Origin: a virus
Taxonomy: Duplodnaviria; Caudoviricetes
DNA length: 64,000 nucleotides
Reading direction: 5' to 3' (one strand)
Virus record (IMG/VR): IMGVR_UViG_2522572155_000001
Coordinates: 32,001-96,000 of that record
In this document: one piece after another, positions 17,101-50,709 of the stretch
Numbering within the stretch: the first letter of the stretch is position 1
Layout of the letters: the number at the start of each line of letters is the position of its first letter
Program-made: the position numbers and the translations under genes
Notes under the pieces: model-generated
What the model saw: only the letters and a program-made list of their open reading frames with translations
What the model was told of the DNA's origin: nothing
The model's database searches: none

Positions 17101-18936
17101 GTCGTGGGAGAACCATCCCTCGTCGGCGGGACGAATCTCGTACGGGTCTACAGAATCCGCGTTAGAGGGCGTTGACGCCTGACGAGTACTCGCCCACTCG
17201 TTCACACGCGCCATGTACTCGGGCTTCGGATCGGAGTTCTTCATCCCTAGCGGCTGGTCAACGCGCGCCATGTTCGACCGGAGGCCGGAGTAGAAGCTCA
17301 CATGCGGGATGTTGTCCGGGTCTCGGAGGGAGTGCGGGTAGTTCGACCAGCCAGCCGGGTCAATGCGGTGGTGAAGTTCCAGGACCGGGTGCCCTGCCGC
17401 CTTCGCATCCTCGTAGTACTCGGACAGCGGGCCGTAAGGGATGTCCACTCCGCTGTCATCCTCATCTGGGTCGAGCCAATCCCCCTGAGGGTGGCTGGCC
17501 CACATGCCCGCCGGAGAGTCGGAGTAGTCGCCGTTCCAGCAGTTGTGCATCAGTGCACCCTCGCGGTACACATCGCTCCAGGTGGTCGGACGGCGGATGG
17601 TCCAGCCGTCCGGGAAGGCGTGGACGACCTCGGACTGATCGGGTGCGCCAATGGCCGCCTCTACTTCGGCGGCGCGACGGAGCTTTTGCGTCCTGGTCTC
17701 CGCTCCCACGCGCTGGGAGTTTACAGAAGGCCCGTTCGCAGGCGCTGACGCGACGGTGCGATCGAAGAGCGACGCCTGTCCCTCGGGATCCTGGGTCGGC
17801 ACCACGGGCCACGGCTTGCCGTTGACGCCCGTGATGTTGACGGCGTCACCCGTGGGGACGCGCCACTCCTTGAGTGAGCCCATCGGGTAGCCGTGACCAT
17901 TCTTGACCGGCTGGGCCTCAACGACGCCGATGTGGTTCGGATTGACCTTAGCGAACCACTCGGGGTCGACACTAGTGAAGAGCGGGTCAGGCGGACCGCC
18001 GCTCCAGCCACGCATCGGCGCATACGGGTTACGCCACCACTCGAATGCCTCATGCGCCTGCTCCTCTGGCGAGAGGTGACGGTAGACGCTCTGGGCGGTG
18101 TAGATCGGCTTCTCAGGCGACCCGAGGGCGTAGGCGTCCTCGTAGGGGTAGTAGCCGTACTGCGCCCACTCCTCAGCCGGAAGGGTCTGAAATCCGCCGC
18201 TCATACCCTTTAGCGGGTGGCCCTCGGGTAGCAAGTGTGAGTAGAACGGCTTACGGCCCAGGAGGAGGTCATCAAGCGCGCGAGGATTGCCCCGCGACCA
18301 GTCATGGTCACCGAACATCTTGCGTAGCCACGGCTCCTTGGCTCCCTCGCCCTTCTCGGCCATCTCGACCAGGCGGTGGATCGGGAGGCGGCCGGAGGCA
18401 ACGTCGGCGCCCTCGCGCATGGCCATGAGGATGTTGTGCGCGATCGTCGGGTCGTCGGTCAGCGAGATCGTCTCATCGTCACCGCCGCCGAGTCCACGAC
18501 CGGCGTTGACGCCGTTGAGATCGAGTTCATGACGCGACCGCAGAACCCCGGACTTCAGAACGTCGGGCAGGTTCGTGGTGACGTGATAGAGCTTCTTCGG
18601 CAGCGGCTTCCAGGACCCGGTGTTCTCGTGGTACGGCGCCCAGGAGTTCGAGTCGGCCTCGTAACCGCTCGGGCGGTACCCGCGAGCCACCGCCTCTGCG
18701 GGGGTGAGACGGCCGGTCGCGATGGCATGGCGGGCGGCGCGATCCCACTCCTTCTCCAGGCTCCGAACCGTCTCGTGATCGCGGTCTAGGTGCCGCGTCC
18801 GCGCCCCGTAGTCCTCGTATGGCTCGTACGGCCGCTGCGAGGGATAGCCTCGATACTCGTCACGGGTCTGGTTGAGGATGTCGTGGTTCACCGGGATGAC
18901 CGGCATCGCCTTGCGCCTGAACGGATTACGCATCAT
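11191..18936 (-). CDS. giant polyvalent protein (two ART-like, two PcfJ-like, GNAT, ParB-N-like, Zn ribbons, HicA-like, Pol-beta nucleotidyltransferase)
   Basis: LYHVTT..ISLTDD..EWRV; EGALMHNC and EGDMMGHCVGSY; THPEHRGKGLF; LLDGWHR; GSLTTYQYADHSDVDV. Confidence 0.8.
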   Translation of the reverse strand: MMRNPFRRKAMPVIPVNHDILNQTRDEYRGYPSQRPYEPYEDYGARTRHLDRDHETVRSLEKEWDRAARHAIATGRLTPAEAVARGYRPSGYEADSNSWAPYHENTGSWKPLPKKLYHVTTNLPDVLKSGVLRSRHELDLNGVNAGRGLGGGDDETISLTDDPTIAHNILMAMREGADVASGRLPIHRLVEMAEKGEGAKEPWLRKMFGDHDWSRGNPRALDDLLLGRKPFYSHLLPEGHPLKGMSGGFQTLPAEEWAQYGYYPYEDAYALGSPEKPIYTAQSVYRHLSPEEQAHEAFEWWRNPYAPMRGWSGGPPDPLFTSVDPEWFAKVNPNHIGVVEAQPVKNGHGYPMGSLKEWRVPTGDAVNITGVNGKPWPVVPTQDPEGQASLFDRTVASAPANGPSVNSQRVGAETRTQKLRRAAEVEAAIGAPDQSEVVHAFPDGWTIRRPTTWSDVYREGALMHNCWNGDYSDSPAGMWASHPQGDWLDPDEDDSGVDIPYGPLSEYYEDAKAAGHPVLELHHRIDPAGWSNYPHSLRDPDNIPHVSFYSGLRSNMARVDQPLGMKNSDPKPEYMARVNEWASTRQASTPSNADSVDPYEIRPADEGWFSHDTGTFVPRFDSRGGDTLTTKHGQGDGRVAYYNGEPVASVTWQGVPGGIMLGSAYTHPEHRGKGLFNRLTEELRAGGQPIDAFHWDNPWLKNKVRDWSRMASAPPNGGSVESVAVISPEQVMEHMRALHKGSRGRSRVDNDIWWERMERKIHQHPSWTRTQHPLASIAGVGSLDVEPDRVNSLAQMPGPMPEVVIDHEGTLLDGWHRATVAHRRGDTHLPAYIPAAPAKASSVDQERTASTPLHMDWTPGEWGKGFLVNNEPVMWNVRAPGLAPHHDDVAATRCPWPQDYECPIVIHPSGWYTLSDSRSPDPNAIEKARRFAGGGLRFAPTYEHWEKMTRRSSVASARVRPYYRLLPSSIREQVLAEGMVPNPVTGNPMHFWDNLPEARRYAEICNGIEPHDLWEVHPRAVGRLKRDPWFKQVPADYWDPAPGRGRPGAWQSDVTHIAPERLRLVDDQDGEVTPSKTSAVNPPKRPYLMQFGAPCPRCGSDLSIVPEMNGYVCNGCSSGYTFGDRMKMHEQLIAPLGDALRALPETEHPLGPTTGSVTPSKWASVDEEWLLCPECGEHQMYLEQTGVPTLLCLGCGHRQMVGGDDPVPGREYPFEDMGAVPGEVDPRVLPEGLTPRQGATPHKSVKRRPHSHITTGQPCTCPWGAHTYMGRTASKFDWLAARPDMQTPEGEEFLRFLDEQGYRQADKLLPWVVREWRKGRLIPNDVGGLGVPGPGQSPLNPQTLAEIQRDLDQMKKARQGIDIMQLGAPELLTRITDWRADQEAKARKDLGEVVHEFPDGWTVRQLNNRHEMRDEGDMMGHCVGSYGDDAELGSSVFLSLRDRKNHPHATLQMTPDHAECANCGHDYGRYGHGQQCDHCGGVIRARVGPGSETTEYKGRSNQDVDDEYNDRMNEYLGTKGAEAAAYQPWWDDTYHMDGPESLTQLVGYNGGYVGGREHHLPDMHPYAQDQWYENEPEDYRIAQGDADEHGVEGPDLEIGDPNYEKIIGSMIEPDRFESSWNTWQDGRNQRVQVQPGYRPEWANFLLQHAKEAGHEDYLREALTEHMADNGVADWRKLRPLEFHQEIDPIAAQYYNHLGGALIPRWRSIEPYDPRPRPKRTPPGQETLFDRTVAKRHGPLQGGPVQSRNEHEEDRTHIGAGRPDDRRDLLGLPGADRAARADRRLSALPDAQSRLAANYKSEADFMAAEMPHWSLDKYNAQGHPMYSWPDANGNRHIVTGFGSVHGGGRGQPVPVQIGNIRRQLQRCEQGACDHVFTNAEHPMAQPVSTEDAQALFQRQLTHGQRVLLNGQPHYVTDIVNDPHEPLVSVVHAETGEENIVPPSQLRAARVATDFRRYPDSDLQMSAWNLMVNGDNLSRQDAIDRLVRIHPGTTPEMADKAMQNALMMWFEGESDGGPYEGPWWKRVIEEDINDSVKPDPRIPKRQGNVLDPIRDTLDPTVWDDPASPTPRLKHEHRLWIMDSIYSILSEAGYTGCEKWGSLYLTGSLTTYQYADHSDVDVSLFVDAEQFPEWSRSEMIGLMIQACDGLIMPGTTHELQTYVVARGIKPADLYQPGLRSGYNVIQDKWLVPPQPDLAHDPEHEENEAYTQALINADKMDRLLRYEPDKAVMFYRQLHRKRMRDQAAGKGDFAASNLTYKMLDNRGLLQQVTGLLAGAKLSSDVPDYFPEDWTPEPDPNTVPNHLITEYLKSLPPDKAEAEAETMARNIIEQQKAATGMDLIHDGKDYTDLLVYMKKVNLLGQCHNCHGTYKVVPGTGTLMGLPSDKCAYCRGDEKRPPPPRDLTVMKESEHGHPVVFDTTSKHNVTVEDQRQWSDYDECGQCGRPRSAHRYAEHELDEHRAIDEKLGYPRRSIEDFQGWQPIGLNHHFDGPPVEYHPWVEPQEHPNPCTETHHYDRESLEQAMRMGGGQFKDTYGTPHELINEGGHYRFRTVSEHNGSRNPYADPGFKVPVEDVHTALGYHQP
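15438..15465 (-). repeat. dif-like 28-bp site 6 (in-frame)
   Basis: ACGCCCTCTAA-GTGGGC-CTCTGTAGACG. Confidence 0.75.
15693..15720 (-). repeat. dif-like 28-bp site 5 (in-frame)
   Basis: ACGCCCTCTAA-GACATC-TGCTGTCAACC. Confidence 0.75.
16404..16431 (-). repeat. dif-like 28-bp site 4 (in-frame)
   Basis: GCGCCCGCTAA-GGCATC-TTCTGTAGACC. Confidence 0.8.
16773..16800 (-). repeat. dif-like 28-bp site 3 (in-frame)
   Basis: GCGCCCCCTAA-TGGCGG-TTCTGTAGAGT. Confidence 0.8.
17145..17172 (-). repeat. dif-like 28-bp site 2 (in-frame)
   Basis: ACGCCCTCTAA-CGCGGA-TTCTGTAGACC. Confidence 0.8.
17718..17745 (-). repeat. dif-like 28-bp site 1 (in-frame)
   Basis: GCGCCTGCGAA-CGGGCC-TTCTGTAAACT. Confidence 0.7.
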
Positions 18937-21900
18937 ACATTCTGGCCGCGCTCAGCAGCGTTTCCGGGTTGTTGGCCGCCGGGTCTTCGAGCACGATGTC
19001 GGTGAGGTGACGTAGTACCTCGCCCATCTGCGGGCCGGGCGTGAAGCCAGCACGGATGAGGTCGTGCCCGTTGATCGCCAGATGGCTCGCGTTCGTGGGC
19101 TCGCCCGCTTCACGTACTCTGTTCACCAGTTCGCGCTGCTTATCCACGTTGAGCTTCGGATCGCTCGGGTATTCCAGCTTGCCGCCCTGGTCGGCCTGGC
19201 GCAGGAGGAGAAGGTCATCGGCGTTCTCGTCGCCCACCTTGTTGATGAACTTTCGCGCGCCGTTGGTGGAGTGGAAGGCAGGGAACATGTGATGGCGCAC
19301 GATGTGCGTCATGTAGCCGATGTCGTCGTTGGAGACGCGGAGGTCACGCAAGTCCTGCTCGAACTGGTCAGCCCCGAGCGGAGCGTGGTCGGCTCCCCAT
19401 ACAGTGCGGGATCCGTTCGGATTCTCCTGGCGCCACTCGTAGTAGTGACCCTCGCCGTCCTGCCCGCAGGTGGGGCACACCTTGCCGGGGATCGGGTTCT
19501 TCACGCGTAGGCCGGTGGCGTGGTCGGTCTGCGAGCACGGCTTGCACTCGAACCACTGCGAGTCCACCTTGCCGTTGTCGTGGTTCGCCGCCGCTAGCTG
19601 GAGTAGCGGGTGTGCCCCGAGTTGCTTGGCGTGACGGAGGACGAGCAGGTTGTGCTCTCCGAGGTCGCCCTCGGGGTGATGCGGGTTGTACTGCTCGAAG
19701 CCCATCGTGCGGGCGAGGCCGGGTAGGAAGTAGGGGAGAGTGCCTGTCTCGTGCGCGAGCCGCAGCGACCGCTCGGTGTACGGCGCGGGCTTGGGTTCCC
19801 GCGTTTCGGGGTCGAGCCCGAACATCTTGAAGAGTTCATTGCGCTTGCGATCGGCCGGGAGGTGCACGAGGCGATCGGCGTACATCGCCATCTGTGCCTT
19901 GGTCATCTCGTCGGGTTCGAGTCCGTGGCGCGCGTTGAGCGCGAGCGCGCGCATGATCCGCAGCGGGTCGTCCTCGAAGCTCTTGGTCGAGGTGGTCGAG
20001 AACGTGCCGTGCCGGATGGCGTCGGCGCCGCCGTAGGGGTCCACGAGCTTGCCGGTGTCGAGGTCGACGCCCATCGCGTTGACATTGAAGTCTCGCCGGG
20101 CGAAGTCTTCCTCGGGGGTCATCGTATGGTCGGCCTGCACGTCGAAGTCGGTGTGCTCGGGGCCGGTCGAGCGCTCGCGACGGGGGAGGGCGATCTCGAT
20201 GACCTCGCCGTCCTGGCGATAGCGGATGACGCTGAAGTCCTGGCCGTGCTGCATGACCTTACCGGGGAGCCTGCGCAGGGCGGCCAGCACCTGCTGATGC
20301 GGGAGCCCGGTGACCATCAGGTCCAAGTCCTTGGGGGCCTCGCCCATGACGGCGTCGCGGACCGCGCCGCCGACCACGTAGACGTGCCCGCCCTCCTGCT
20401 TGAGGGCCTGGTAGACGCGCCAGGCAAGGTCATCCTGGGCGACGAGGTTGGCGATGTGCTGGCCGATCTCCATGTTGGACGTGATCGGCCGTGCCGACAC
20501 GGGCTGGTATGCGGGATTGGGGGCGAACTTCCAGCCTCCGGGGCCGTCGTCGCTGATGCCGGTCATGACGTGCGTGCCGACGATCGCGTGCGGAGGGATA
20601 GTGCCCTGGTGTGCGAGCGAGTGATGCTGGTCGCTTTCGAGGATCACTTGCGTGAGTTCGGGATTGTCTCCCAGGCCAACTCCCTCCGCCCACCTGCCCT
20701 TGTTGTCGTACTCGCCGGTGTCCCACATCCCAGTAGGAGTGGCGTCCTCGTCGGGGTTGATGTTCTCCGGGTCGAGATAGCGCGGATCTACCTCAACTAC
20801 CGTGGCGTCATCTGACGCGGTCGTGGGAGCGATGTTCCACGCAAAGTCCTTGTCGTTAGTTAGGTACACGTGGCCCGGGCGCGGGGTCATCCTCGGGTCC
20901 CAGTTATGCTGACCTAGCTCATCCCACGGACGCAGACCCTGGCGGGTGATGTCAGCGGCACGACTGCTCGTCGTGCCATGGTAGAGCTTCTCCCACTTAG
21001 GCCAACCCTGGTAGCGAGACCGTGCTAGTTCCGGCTGCGTCTCGTCCTCCCAATAGCCTTCATCAACCGGGCGGGCGACGCGTGCCAGCTTCGTGTCGTT
21101 ACCTGCGTCGTCGCGCAGATGGACCGACTTGATGACGAATTCCGGGTGCTGGTAATACCAGAGTTCCAGCATGTGCCGAACCGTGTAGGGCATGTTGGTG
21201 AGCGAGCGGACGATTACCTTGCCGCCCGGCTCGTATGTGCCCTCAACGATGCCGCCCGGGGTGAACTTGCCCTGGATGTCGGAGTGGCGCTCGCCGGGGT
21301 GACCGACTGTCACGGAGTCCTCGTCCACGTCATAGATGAACGGTACGGCACCTTCAAGGAGCTTGGAGGGATCCTGGTCGGCCGACCAGCGGTAGATACG
21401 GTGCCCGGCATGGATGAAGCCCATCCGGGTGAGGACGTGGAACTCTTCAGTCGCCGCAAGCCGCTGCCCGTCCGGCGAGTACTCAGCGGCGAGGTGCATG
21501 TGGAGGTCCGTGTAGACTCGCTGAAGGCGCGAGAGGATCGCGTCAGTGACGTGGAATCCCACGGGTGAGGAAATCCAGGTGAGCAACGGGCCTTCGAGGG
21601 CAGCGCAGCCAACCGGCGATCCGTTCTCGTAGGCCGTGTAGTAGGTGCTCTCTGCGTGGCGGAAGTAGCGGTGATTGACACCGGGTACCTTGTCTGCCTC
21701 TGCATTGCTCGTGCGGAGGATGACGCCCTCGAAACGGGAGAAGTTCGCCCCCGGAGGACCGGGCGGGCCATCCGGGTAAGCCGAGCGGGGCATAGGGAAG
21801 TGGCGCAGGAAGTAGTCGCGCACGAAGTCGTGCGTGGCGGGCACCACCGCACTGACACCGCCGTTCAGGAAGATGAGACGGTCGCCGCCAGCAACGTTGA

Positions 21901-23530
21901 CCGAATCGAACCCATTCGCGGCCAACCAGTTAGCCGCCTCAGCCAAGTCACTCTGCACGTCCCCCTCAAAGGCGTGCGGATCAGCCTTGATCTCCTCAGG
22001 ACTCCACGCCTGCCCGAAGCCAACCTGTCCAACCGGCTGATCGCCACGGTAGACGTAGATGCCGAACCCGCGAGTGGCGAGATCAGCATCCCAGGGCCAC
22101 GGCCCGCGTCCATGAGCCGCAACGACGTTCGTCGGCTCGAAGCTCTGCTCGGAGAAGTTGGGCGGGAAGGTGGCGTCCTGGTCAGGAAGCTCGGGGAACT
22201 TGGACGGCTGCACCGTGGTGTCGGTCGTCCCCATCGGCTCCTCCTGCTCACGGTGACGAATGTAGAGGTCCCAGCGGGGGAAAATCTGGTCGCACTCGGG
22301 GCACTTGAAGACTCCACCGGGCGCGCGCTCGTCACGCTGCGGCTCGTTGAAGAACTGGCCGCCCTCGGGCTCGTTGTCGGTTGGGCTCCAGAGGTTGTCG
22401 GTCTGTAGGTCTTCGATGCGCTTGACGACGTTATCCCCGGCCATCAGGCGCAGACCGCTGTCTGTTGCCCACTCGCTCAGTGCGGTGAACAGGTACGGGC
22501 GATCCCGGAAGCGCGCCACCTTGGCGACAGCACCTTCGATGTGAATCGCGCCGGTTACGGCGGCCTCCCTGGGTCCCACGCCGTAGTCAGCTTCGATCGC
22601 CGTGGCGAGGTCCCATGCGGAGCGCGCGAGCAGCAGATGCTCTGTATCAGGTAGCCAGGCGTAGATCAGGCGGGATGACTTCTTCGGAGCGAAGTCATCG
22701 TTGATCGGCTGCCCGCTGGAGTCCACGAGCCCGCCCCACTCCCAGCCCACGTGCTTGTCGTAGTCCTTGAGCACCCGCTCCAGGGCGTGGAGAGCGATGT
22801 TCGACCGTAGCTGCCAGTTGGCGCTGCCCATATTGACCGTCACGAATCCGGCGGCGAACGGGCCGGTGTGGTCGACCGGGATCCCGGCCTGGCGAGCTAG
22901 CTCCTCGTGGGAGTCGTCGGCCGAGAGATGAAGGTTGCCATTGCCGTAGACGACGTTGTAGGTCTTCGGGCCGTCCGGGGCTCCGGGGGTGTCGTGGAGA
23001 TAGCGCTGGTTGTAGTTCTCGACCGCCTGCGCCTCCTCGCCGGGGTAGGCGTCTCCGAGGTCGAACGCGAGCTTGGCGTAGCGGCCCTCTAGCGCGCGAT
23101 CGGCGCGCGACATGAAGCGGACAGTGCGCGGCTCCGGATCGATGTCCGGGATGACCTCATGCCCGGCGAAGATAGGATGAGTAGTTCGCTTGTAGAGCAT
23201 CGGTGCCGTCCTCCACCGAAGGTGCTCCGGGTGAAGCCGCAGGCCGGGATCCTCTTCGTCCAGCCGGATGCCCTCGATAGACGGATCGGCAGGCGGTAGG
23301 ACGTGGCGATCACCGCAGATATCCAGAGCGTGCTTGCCGTCCGTCCAAAAGTAACAACCATCCTTGCGCCCGACGTGTCCCCCGAGCTTGCTCTGAAGCC
23401 AGCGTGAGGTGACGTAGCACTGGCCCACCGCAGGTACCGGGTGACCACGAAAGGCGTCAGGGCGCGTGTCATCAGACCACGCCTGCGTCGCGGCATTCTG
23501 GAGGGCATGGATTTGATCCTGGCTAAGCAT
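18926..23530 (-). CDS. giant multidomain protein: YunG-like N-terminus, ART/Tpt1-like domain, C-terminal CCA-adding enzyme with HD domain
   Basis: GQCYVTS; LYHGTT..GLRP..VYLT; [37 protein letters not shown]. Confidence 0.85.
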
Positions 23531-45218: not shown

Positions 45219-45839
45219 TTAGGAGAGGAAGAGCTTGCGCTCCGCTTCGCGACGGCTTGTGAGCCCGGGTAGCACACGGCTGCCTGCCATGTCCCAATCG
45301 AGCAGGTGGTTCGCCGCGCCCTTCCAGTCGTGCGAGCGCAGCGCGCGGCCGACGCCGGTATCCCGGTCGATGGCTCCGGGTCCGCAGTTGTAGACGAAGC
45401 TCACCAGGGCGTCGAACTGATGCTGGCTCAGCGGGAGGTGAAGGGCGGCGACCGGCGGGGCGTACTTGTGGTTGAGGTCTGTCTTGAGGAGAGCCGTCGC
45501 CTGCTTCTCGGTGATGTTCTTCGAGTTTGGGCCGACGCCGGACGTGTGACCGTAGCCGATGGTCCACACGCCCACGGCGTCGCGGTAGGGGTGATCTACG
45601 AAGCCCTCGAAGCGCTTGATGAGGGCGACGCCCGAGTCAGAGACCTTGGTGATGCGCTTGGCGGCAAGCTGCTTCTTGCGACGCTGCACCAACTCATGGG
45701 CGTTCTTGTACATCCCGTACCAGTAGGCCCGGCGCGGGGACTTGGAGTTCTTCTTGACATAGTCTCGCCAGTTCTTGTGGAAGCGAGACTCACGCTCTTC
45801 CCAGAGGGCGAGAGAGTGCTGTAGCTCGGTAACGGTCAT
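45219..45839 (-). CDS. endolysin, GH24 lysozyme
   Basis: IKRFEG..PYRDAVGVWTIGYGHT..FDALVSFVYNCG..GLTSRREAE. Confidence 0.92.
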   Translation of the reverse strand: MTVTELQHSLALWEERESRFHKNWRDYVKKNSKSPRRAYWYGMYKNAHELVQRRKKQLAAKRITKVSDSGVALIKRFEGFVDHPYRDAVGVWTIGYGHTSGVGPNSKNITEKQATALLKTDLNHKYAPPVAALHLPLSQHQFDALVSFVYNCGPGAIDRDTGVGRALRSHDWKGAANHLLDWDMAGSRVLPGLTSRREAERKLFLS

Positions 45840-46665: not shown

Positions 46666-47199
46666 CTACTTCCTCGGGCTCTTCTTGTGTCGATGCAAGC
46701 GAGAAGCATGCGCGTTGAGTCGCCTGCGGGCGAGCTTCGCCGGGCTTGCTGCGAAGTTCACGTGGTGAGCCTCGGAGGCCGTGTGATACGGCTGGTGCAC
46801 CTTGTAGCCGTAGCGATGGAGCACGCGGAGTAGGTCATCCCATTCCGTAACGTCGAGACCTAGCTGATAGGGCCGGAGCTTGTGCCCGACGTGGCCGATG
46901 GTGCCATCTCCGAGCAGCAGGTGGGAGCCCTGGGTCGGTGGGTTCGCGGGCAGGAACCCGGGCAGGCGCTTCGTCCATCCGTTGAACAGGTACGCCTGGT
47001 CGTGAAGCTTGGTCTTGTGCCTCTTGTTGAACGACTTGATCGTGGATACGCGACGATCTGCCGAGACAAGGTGTCCCTTCCAGCCGTTGTTACGCGCGTC
47101 CTGGAGTGCCCATGCGAGGCCCCGGTAGACGGGCACATTGTCGAACTTGACGATGTGCCACGCCGGGTAGACCGTGCTCAGAAGCGGTAGGCGGCTCAT
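46666..47199 (-). CDS. peptidase M15-like cell-wall hydrolase
   Basis: DQAYLF..ANPP..SH..GLDV..EAHHV. Confidence 0.6.
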   Translation of the reverse strand: MSRLPLLSTVYPAWHIVKFDNVPVYRGLAWALQDARNNGWKGHLVSADRRVSTIKSFNKRHKTKLHDQAYLFNGWTKRLPGFLPANPPTQGSHLLLGDGTIGHVGHKLRPYQLGLDVTEWDDLLRVLHRYGYKVHQPYHTASEAHHVNFAASPAKLARRRLNAHASRLHRHKKSPRK

Positions 47200-47234
47200 G
47201 CCGCTTACGTGAGAGGCTCAACGATGAAGTAAGG

Positions 47235-47512
47235 TCACGCCCTATAGCCAGGATTCTGTCGTGGTCGATCATCTACCTCTGTATCGCGTATCGATACGCG
47301 ATACAGGCCACACCTTTACGTGGTGGCTGCCCTCAACCTTGCTCACCCCTGGTTGCCCTCGGGTGGCTATTGCGAGGTTGCACCCTGCCTCCCCACTGAG
47401 GTTCGAACGGCCGTAAGCCTCCCTCCGGAGGATCAGTATCTGCGACGAGGTTTGCCCCCGCCAGGGTGTCCTGAACTTCCTCTGGCCGAGGCCAGCGATC
47501 GACTAGGCGTGA
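47235..47512 (-). ncRNA. rnpB: RNase P RNA (compact, ~278 nt)
   Basis: P1 TCACGCC/GGCGTGA; P2 GTCGATC/GATCGAC; P3 CTGGCC/GGCCAG; GAGGAAGTTCAGGA pairs ACAGAATCCTGGCT (P4 with bulged U); CACCCTGG/CCAGGGGTG; GAGCAAG. Confidence 0.85.
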
Positions 47513-47513
47513 G

Positions 47514-47586
47514 AGCCCACGCGGGGATTCGAGCCCCGGACCTCTCCCTTACGAGGGGAGCGCTCTACCTGCTGAGCTACGTGGGC
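47514..47586 (-). tRNA. tRNA-Thr (CGT)
   Basis: loop CTCGTAA; T-loop reads CTCGAAT. Confidence 0.88.
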
Positions 47587-47591
47587 GTGCA

Positions 47592-47664
47592 AGCCACCAC
47601 AGGGAGTCGAACCCTGGACCCCTGCCTTACCATGGCAGTGCTCTGTCCTCTGAGCTATGGCGGC
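47592..47664 (-). tRNA. tRNA-Thr (GGT)
   Basis: loop ATGGTAA. Confidence 0.9.
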
Positions 47665-50322: not shown

Positions 50323-50328
50323 ACTTAG

Positions 50329-50709
50329 TGGAGGCGCCGGGAGTCGAACCCGGGTGTTCCGTGCGCGTATCTCGCCAGTCTTTCAGCAGCTTAGGCCGTA
50401 GGTGGCCATCCACAATCTAAGGACACAGGCTAGCTGTGTCTCCACCACCTGCTCGATACGGTCGAGCAGGAAACCGGCCCTCCGTTTAGGAGGGCGTCAC
50501 CCGGAGTTCTGGTCCTAGGCCCCGGGAGCCCGCGCCGTAGGTTACGCTACGGCTAGAAGTGCTTCCAGTTCGTCCTCGACGGTCATAGTGACCTCGGACG
50601 GCATGGAAGCGATGATGTTCTCGCCAGTTATGGCTTGTGGCAGGTAGGTGTGCCGACCGCTGCACTGCTCGGGACTGCATCTCACGGAGTCGAAGCCATG
50701 TTCGCCCCC
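50329..50709 (-). ncRNA. ssrA: tmRNA
   Basis: 5' GGGGGCGAACATGGCTTCGAC; 3' CCCGGGTTCGACTCCCGGCGCCTCCA; G3:U; tag ORF 50542-50625. Confidence 0.92.

Follow-up and report, generated by a model that had tools for sequence, protein, structure and literature searches.

The window analysed here, a stretch of 64,000 nucleotides of phage DNA, encodes on its minus strand (47512-47235) a 278-nt RNA which, on the evidence of two covariance models, is homologous to RNase P RNA. The best reading of the sequence is that it derives from bacterial type A RNase P RNA. It stands at the end of a run of co-oriented tRNA genes within what appears to be an integrated prophage, its fold is under selection, and it probably serves as an active catalytic subunit of RNase P that acts together with the RnpA protein of the host on the dense precursor tRNAs of the phage.

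Homology to RNase P RNA and layout of the fold

Rfam at its curated thresholds reported only tRNAs and a tmRNA across the whole window, and the RNase P-like RNA was absent from its output. In a permissive scan of positions 47100-47650, the model for bacterial class A RNase P RNA (RF00010) aligned along model positions 1-367 with 40.2 bits (E 3.6e-11, which refers to the 551-nt search space). This lies under the gathering cut-off of 100 bits because a 74-nt insert has replaced the specificity domain. The alignment retains P1, P2, P3, CR-I, a J5/15-like element, the P18-position hairpin, CR-IV and CR-V, and deletes every position of the specificity domain (P7-P14, CR-II and CR-III). An earlier note on this DNA had proposed an Rfam cmsearch as a check on its reading as RNase P RNA, and took the lack of any covariance-model hit as grounds for giving that reading up; significant matches were found, though below the cut-off curated by Rfam.

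A second covariance model, R1, describes the 3' half of 18 phage and metagenome RNAs, with the window RNA and that of a close relative (IMG/VR contig 3300017651_000007, here L021) left out. It scored 47.8 bits on the rnpB gene of the host, 34.8 bits on the window RNA (E 1.2e-6 in 159 kb) and 30.2 bits on the RNA of L021, hence the phage family is tied to a genuine RNase P RNA and the window RNA to the family.

The RNA is present as a single copy, and CR-I and CR-V each occur once in the 64 kb, in the correct order and complementary to each other. This order and complementarity would not be expected of a GC-rich structured spacer that holds RNase P-like strings by chance, a reading which could otherwise draw on the tendency of GC-rich DNA to fold well by default and on an MFE z-score of only -4.7. 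Two independent covariance models also speak against such a coincidence, and the RF00010 match, the R1 match and the compensatory changes seen in L021 (below) together effectively refute it, leaving its probability close to nil.

The RNA has no credible open reading frame of its own. Its extent follows from the RF00010 alignment and a helix map, and its elements, with the adjoining tRNA gene, are listed here in the 5' to 3' direction of the minus strand.

47513..47586 (-): tRNA-Thr(CGT), immediately upstream, no encoded CCA (ARAGORN; Rfam tRNA 68.2 bits)
47235..47512 (-): whole RNase P-like RNA (RF00010 40.2 bits, E 3.6e-11; phage-family model R1 34.8 bits, E 1.2e-6)
47504..47512 (-): P1 5' strand, pairs with 47244-47235 (one compensatory change relative to L021)
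47497..47503 (-): P2 5' strand, pairs with 47270-47264 (two compensatory changes relative to L021)
47482..47495 (-): P3 hairpin, 6 pairs and a 2-nt loop (a longer hairpin of different sequence at the L021 site)
47468..47482 (-): CR-I, including the P4 5' strand 47477-47469 (reads GAGGAAGUUC instead of GAGGAAAGUCC)
47462..47468 (-): P5 5' strand, pairs with 47387-47381 (7 perfect pairs; two compensatory changes relative to L021)
47388..47461 (-): insert of 74 nt replacing the specificity domain (P7-P14), with small hairpins (RF00010 deletions and folds)
47374..47381 (-): J5/15 (GCAA, 47381-47378) and P15 5' strand (47377-47374) (comparison with relatives)
47341..47367 (-): P16 hairpin, which holds the look-alike string GAGCAAG (helix map; unrelated hairpin at the L021 site)
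47331..47340 (-): L15 loop with GGU (47340-47335), then P15 3' strand (47334-47331) (identical in L021)
47307..47327 (-): extra hairpin with a GUAAAG loop (one compensatory change relative to L021)
47279..47306 (-): P18-position hairpin, a perfect 28-nt palindrome of 12 pairs and a 4-nt loop (four compensatory changes relative to L021)
47271..47278 (-): CR-IV, AG-N4-AU (automatic motif search)
47264..47270 (-): P2 3' strand (helix map)
47245..47259 (-): CR-V (ACAGAA), including the P4 3' strand 47253-47246 (P4 pairing, helix map)
47235..47244 (-): P1 3' strand (helix map)

All four helices from P1 to P4 pair as the earlier note described, including the compensating strands of P4. P4 (47477-47469 with 47253-47246) comprises 8 pairs and a bulged U, and can be drawn in the canonical geometry of three pairs, the bulged U and five pairs. 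The reading GAGGAAGUUC in place of the usual bacterial GAGGAAAGUCC, which the note had also picked out, is seen in CR-I: the three nucleotides before the bulge are A-G-U, where the canonical sequence is A-A-G, and their partners are altered to match. Two near-universal P4 positions differ from the consensus, which counts against reading the RNA as an active ribozyme, and so does the loop of the P18-position hairpin, which is UCGA and not GNRA.

Of the landmark strings named in the note, GAGGAA falls in CR-I and ACAGAA in CR-V, and the AG-N4-AU motif of CR-IV is present as well, whereas GAGCAAG is probably not J5/15 and falls in the 3' strand of P16. An assignment in which GAGCAAG (47344-47338) closed P5 as J5/15 was replaced, since relatives support J5/15 at 47381-47378 and P5 at 47468-47462/47387-47381. 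The J5/15 adenosines are present at 47380-47378. P5 and P16 face a competing alternative, the pairing of 47468-47461 with 47351-47343, for which L021 offers no support. A P6-like pairing covaries in relatives, as judged by eye; the window copy offers no convincing P6 partner. A hairpin is also found at the position of the extra hairpin in L117, L056 and L161. The GGU of L15 in type A RNAs binds the 3' end of the tRNA.

The 74-nt insert occupies the site of an expected specificity domain of ~150 nt. Neither the Rfam alignment nor folds of the insert reveal a canonical specificity domain (P7-P14, CR-II, CR-III) in the RNA, hence recognition of the tRNA elbow would be different or weak. The insert retains a module seen by eye across the whole family (a short stem, GAG, a hairpin and GUUNNAAC), and its internal structure, as modelled, is uncertain.

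Close copies of the 28-nt palindrome at 47279-47306 (93-100% identity) also lie between genes in seven genomes from the order of the host, all of them small at 2.4-3.7 Mb (L003:1503-1530, L005:1502-1529 and five others), where the neighbouring genes are unrelated (DUF488, HTH_17). The palindrome was the only match in a DNA-similarity search of 400 genomes of that order, and could represent a site bound by a protein or else a mobile hairpin.

The tRNA array, the prophage and its host

The tRNA-Thr(CGT) gene ends at 47514 (Rfam) or 47513 (ARAGORN) and the RNase P-like RNA starts at 47512, and the 278-nt length and the 2-nt distance from this tRNA given in the earlier note are correct. From ~51.9 kb to ~45.9 kb on the minus strand, ARAGORN made 33 calls (32 tRNAs and one tmRNA), and the RNase P-like RNA stands at the end of a co-oriented run of these tRNA genes. 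The tRNA set of the prophage covers all amino acids, and CCA is not encoded in any of its tRNAs. A PolyA_pol/CCA-adding-enzyme head domain (PF01743, 88.5 bits, ~20006-20383) is found in an ORF of 1534 aa (window 18926-23530 (-)). The phage tmRNA (window 50326-50709 (-)) scored 49 bits, barely over the Rfam cut-off of 47, and the tag predicted for it by ARAGORN has 27 residues with ALLAVA at its end.

Neither a promoter nor a terminator belonging to the RNase P-like RNA was detected. As no terminator adjoins the RNA and the sole promoter-like site of the window is at 51943-51915, co-transcription with the tRNAs is likely. A lysozyme gene (45219-45839) lies nearby, hence the tRNA array runs into lysis genes. 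Directly downstream of the RNA, an ORF (46666-47199 (-)) encodes a basic protein of 177 aa with no Pfam family. As a candidate for a private protein cofactor this ORF was dropped, given the lack of a Pfam family and the presence of a different ORF at the L021 site (L021:5534-6214 (+)), which encodes a protein of 226 aa with a C-terminal part resembling a CHAP-type peptidase by eye. The flanking ORF and one structural ORF had no tblastn match in phage records.

This arrangement, in which tRNAs, tmRNA, small ORFs and lysis genes share one strand and a single promoter-like site, would also suit a specialised endonuclease RNA with a narrower job, either at the junctions of a tRNA-tmRNA-mRNA transcript or in the maturation of the phage tmRNA. 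A remodelled specificity domain with a small module conserved across the family would fit such a role as well. However, there is no pointer to a non-tRNA substrate, the GGU of L15 is retained, and some relatives lie between tRNA genes in arrays without a nearby tmRNA, so that we regard this narrower role as rather unlikely.

The window corresponds to G000:C5:255233-319232 in the 6.64-Mb genome of an actinobacterium of 72-73% GC. On contig C5, an island of 62-67% GC extends from ~215.0 to 379.6 kb and carries genes for a portal (PHROG 2833, E 2e-156), a large terminase, tail proteins, a lysozyme and a ribonucleotide reductase. At ~40% identity, the portal matches its counterparts in Rhodococcus phage E3, in Gordonia phage Pupper and in >200 mycobacteriophages of cluster C (Bxz1-like). 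A tyrosine integrase lies at the right edge (C5:378210-379610, equivalent to L304:6211-7611 (-)), GC content is at host level on both flanks, and ordinary host genes lie beyond the left edge. No att repeat of at least 17 nt and no tRNA was found at either junction. Taken together, the GC island, the phage genes, the integrase at its edge and the host flanks point to an integrated prophage, and the island appears from its sequence to be a Bxz1/cluster C-like myophage genome of ~164 kb. Known cultured Bxz1-like relatives are lytic, hence a temperate member would be unusual.

The host possesses its own rnpB (G000:C3:274685-275007, 323 nt, RF00010 246.6 bits), with a canonical CR-I, and a single rnpA (C2:264872-265198), the only PF00825 match in the genome. 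No rnpA (PF00825) was found in the window or the prophage, in line with the absence of RnpA that the earlier note had seen in the window. With host rnpB and the sole rnpA elsewhere, the RNA is a second, prophage-borne RNase P RNA homologue; its homology to RF00010 and R1, and the portal, terminase, tail, lysozyme and integrase genes around it, bear out the note in calling it phage-encoded. Given the canonical CR-I of host rnpB, the phage RNA is not a recent copy of the host gene. Recent capture from a host is also countered by a search for the two-motif phage signature (defined below), which had no match among 185,579 species-representative genomes of the size range searched.

Selection on the fold and the wider phage family

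L021 was reached via its terminase, which is 87% identical. It carries the same tRNA-Thr(CGT), followed by a small ORF and then by a homologous RNA of 286 nt, which Rfam missed entirely. The two RNAs show 78% identity in aligned columns, and differ by 13 two-sided compensatory changes in seven helices (P1, 1; P2, 2; P3, 2; P4, 1; P5, 2; extra hairpin, 1; P18, 4), with few broken pairs, mainly at alignment edges. P16 and P3 are unalignable by sequence between the two, with hairpins in both. CR-V in L021 reads ACGAAA in place of ACAGAA. The small ORF of L021 (L021:5081-5218 (+)), between the tRNA-Thr(CGT) and the RNase P-like RNA, is cysteine-rich and has a good Shine-Dalgarno sequence, and its stop codon falls within the P1 5' strand.

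Across nine family members, with the window excluded, P1, P2, P3, P4, P15 and P16 were paired in 95.9% of cells, as against 68.5% in shuffled controls and 27-45% with slid partners for the same nine members, and 26 pairs showed two-sided changes. When the whole family was aligned with MAFFT, P5, the S-like stem and the P15-P16 region of the window came out misaligned, hence pairing counts were confined to helices with checked columns. P1 closes in nearly all members despite unrelated sequences, all five consecutive pairs of P2 have two-sided changes (alignment A5), and the cognate strands of P1 and P2 bind far better than partners taken from other sequences. P16 covaries across the family, and each column of P15 is paired in 17 of 18 sequences with several pair types. 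CR-IV was present in all family members examined by automatic search (31/31). Furthermore, the variable P4 pair, which was left free by the metagenome search pattern, is Watson-Crick in every one of the 25 distinct metagenome copies (GC 12, AU 9, UA 3, CG 1). The fold of the RNase P-like RNA is under selection.

The family itself was recovered by motif. A CR-I string scan of viral contigs, filtered for a complementary CR-V, gave at least 13 more RNAs, and metagenomes scanned with both motifs yielded 28 loci (25 distinct); the earlier note had suggested looking in other phages, and a family is indeed present there, in no fewer than 13 viral contigs and 25 distinct sequences from metagenomes. 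The signature, also found in the window, consists of CR-I GAGGAAGUUC-N-GGAC and CR-V ...AAUCC-N'-GGCUA, with N and N' complementary; all of the recovered copies (at least 38) carry it by construction, because it was the search pattern. At 11 of the 13 other viral loci tRNA genes lie on the strand of the RNA, and in L024, L075, L106 and L137 the RNA is directly between two tRNA genes. The window copy shares with the family the P4 signature, the order of helices, the placement in a tRNA array and the reduced specificity region. Together with L021 it forms a GC-rich actinophage branch, set apart from the rest of the family by its larger P16, by two additional 3' hairpins and by an S-like insert of another kind. 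Unlike family members from uncultured phages, the window copy belongs to a prophage that is integrated in a sequenced bacterial genome.

Two family members (L106:340-683 (-) and L162:550-840 (+)) hold a T-arm-like segment of the GGTTCGAATCC type inside the S-like insert, as if a tRNA-like element were embedded in the RNase P-like RNA. Arrays that contain an RNase P-like RNA also include CUA-anticodon (amber suppressor) tRNAs, called tRNA-Pyl by ARAGORN, at L025:6836-6910, L033:4321-4395 and L079:1739-1810.

Similarity searches returned little beyond these scans. A blastn search of the window RNA against 50,697 phage records gave tRNA matches only, and the same search with two other family members gave nothing, or only one unannotated 735-kb uncultured phage; the match in that phage (LR756501.1:181350-181463) is weak, with 70% identity along 110 nt, and concerns the 3' half of L117. 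A 14-mer common to the window and L021 had only chance matches in viral contigs, and there were no terminase relatives in the genome contig set. Among cultured relatives, Rfam found no RNase P RNA in the whole records of E3, Pupper, Alice, Phabba and Phrappuccino, a weak negative given that the same search first missed the copy in the window, and the CR-I pattern matched these records at control frequency only. Within the tRNA/tmRNA arrays of Alice, Phabba and Phrappuccino, none was found by a sensitive Rfam scan, a core-motif script or model R1. In L022, whose terminase is 55% identical, there was no RNase P-like RNA within 10 kb of the terminase. The lack of a detected copy in cultured Bxz1-like phages suggests that the gene is dispensable for this phage type and, together with the result for L022, that it is patchy even inside this phage group.

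Such patchiness could be taken as the mark of a decaying, non-functional RNase P RNA remnant carried along in the tRNA array. A remnant would accord with the cultured relatives in which no copy was detected, the sub-threshold Rfam score, the loss of the S-domain, and the RNA of L021, which is altered in CR-V and escapes Rfam. Against decay stand the 13 compensatory double changes relative to L021 with very few broken pairs, the strong covariation throughout the family, and the one architecture kept in AT-rich and GC-rich phages alike. We therefore consider decay very improbable.

Probable function and relation to known RNase P RNAs

The function we favour is that of an active catalytic subunit. 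The RNA would be transcribed together with the prophage array of 32 tRNA genes and one tmRNA gene, and 3'-end processing of tRNA-Thr(CGT), two bases upstream, would free its 5' end. Host RnpA, the only one in the genome, would most likely be bound as partner, and the RNA would then cleave the 5' leaders and short spacers of the closely packed phage precursor tRNAs, the outcome being a phage-owned tRNA processing capacity in infection or induction. Transcription, release, protein partner and catalysis are all steps that we infer from sequence. The catalytic domain is kept whole (P1-P5, P15/L15 GGU, P16, the P18-position hairpin, CR-I, CR-IV and CR-V), and an active subunit is favoured because the elements which contact the cleavage site, the 3' end of the substrate and the protein are all retained and covarying. 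Natural and engineered RNase P RNAs that have no specificity domain (type T RNAs, catalytic-domain constructs) retain activity. Weighing on the other side are the missing specificity domain, the two altered P4 bases, the P18 loop that is not GNRA, the lack of an evident P6 in this copy, the competing pairing with P5 and P16, the sub-threshold Rfam score, the altered CR-V of L021 and the cultured relatives in which no copy was detected.

The same RNA could instead be an RNase P-derived decoy with no general ribozyme function, which binds host RnpA or pre-tRNAs and so damps or redirects the maturation of host tRNAs. The conserved RnpA-contacting regions of the catalytic domain, the missing substrate-reading domain, the changed near-universal bases of P4 and the single host rnpA for which to compete would all suit a decoy. 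However, a decoy needs no combination of bulged-U P4, J5/15 adenosines, L15 GGU, CR-IV and CR-V, all of which are conserved in diverse phages, and the RNA sits among phage tRNA genes that themselves require 5' processing. We consider the decoy distinctly unlikely.

A bolder form of the favoured function, which we hold to be possible but doubtful, is a trans-acting phage RNase P with no canonical specificity domain and a rewired P4 that matures the CCA-less tRNAs independently of the host RNA, perhaps free of RnpA. If true, phage translation would continue under a shut-off of host RNA synthesis or an attack on tRNAs, and the RNA would rank as a minimal RNase P of natural origin and as the first multiple-turnover ribozyme encoded by a virus.

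Among known systems, bacterial type A RNase P RNA (RF00010; E. coli M1 RNA/rnpB; the host copy) shares with the phage RNA the order of P1-P5, P15/L15, P16 and P18, the bulged-U P4, CR-I, CR-IV, CR-V and the J5/15 adenosines. The phage RNA differs in its length of 278 nt compared with 323 nt in the host, in the 74-nt insert that stands for P7-P14, CR-II and CR-III, in the GAGGAAGUUC of CR-I, in a P18 position without a GNRA loop, and in an extra hairpin after P15. It also differs in scoring 40 bits against a cut-off of 100, and in being encoded by a prophage and adjoining tRNA genes. The RNase P RNA of E. coli is ~377 nt long. Type T RNase P RNA of the Thermoproteaceae (Pyrobaculum and relatives; RF02357) likewise retains its catalytic domain, with hardly any of the specificity domain left. 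It belongs to an archaeal lineage, has archaeal protein partners and is the only RNase P RNA of the cell. No match to RF02357 was listed here, which is weak evidence since overlapping matches of the same clan are suppressed.

No published description of a phage-encoded RNase P RNA was found in the literature searched. The nearest published case, judged by its description, is that of Mycobacterium austroafricanum DSM 44191 and M. sp. YC-RL4, which have extra RNase P RNA homologues of 196 and 303 nt beside the regular one of 420 nt (PMC9569102). In the 303-nt copy the specificity domain is altered, the two copies have an endonuclease gene between them, and an extra tmRNA in the same genome was attributed to a phage (Nappy) (PMC9569102). 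Behra et al. 2022 suggest horizontal transfer of the extra homologues and leave their function open (PMC9569102); the authors neither call them phage genes nor link them to the tRNA array of a phage.

A further parallel is offered by theta (HDV-like) ribozymes, which adjoin tRNA genes of gut phages and are proposed to act in tRNA maturation (PMC10879173). Like the phage RNA, these are phage-encoded ribozymes physically linked to phage tRNA genes; as described there, they are small, self-cleaving and cis-acting at tRNA 3' ends, with a fold unrelated to RNase P, and not trans-acting.

RNase P RNA is usually treated as a universal cellular housekeeping ribozyme, a picture that a virus-encoded version would alter. 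If the favoured function is true, phages bring tRNA-processing catalysis besides tRNAs; this prophage has tRNAs, a tmRNA, a CCA-adding-type domain and this RNA. Many independently evolved minimal RNase P RNAs would then also exist in nature, and would bear directly on the old question of the extent to which the ribozyme depends on its specificity domain and on particular P4 bases. The window copy stands out in being GC-rich, borne by an actinophage and placed in an integrated prophage of a sequenced host, and as that host has normal rnpB and rnpA genes, induction, deletion and reconstitution would be feasible.
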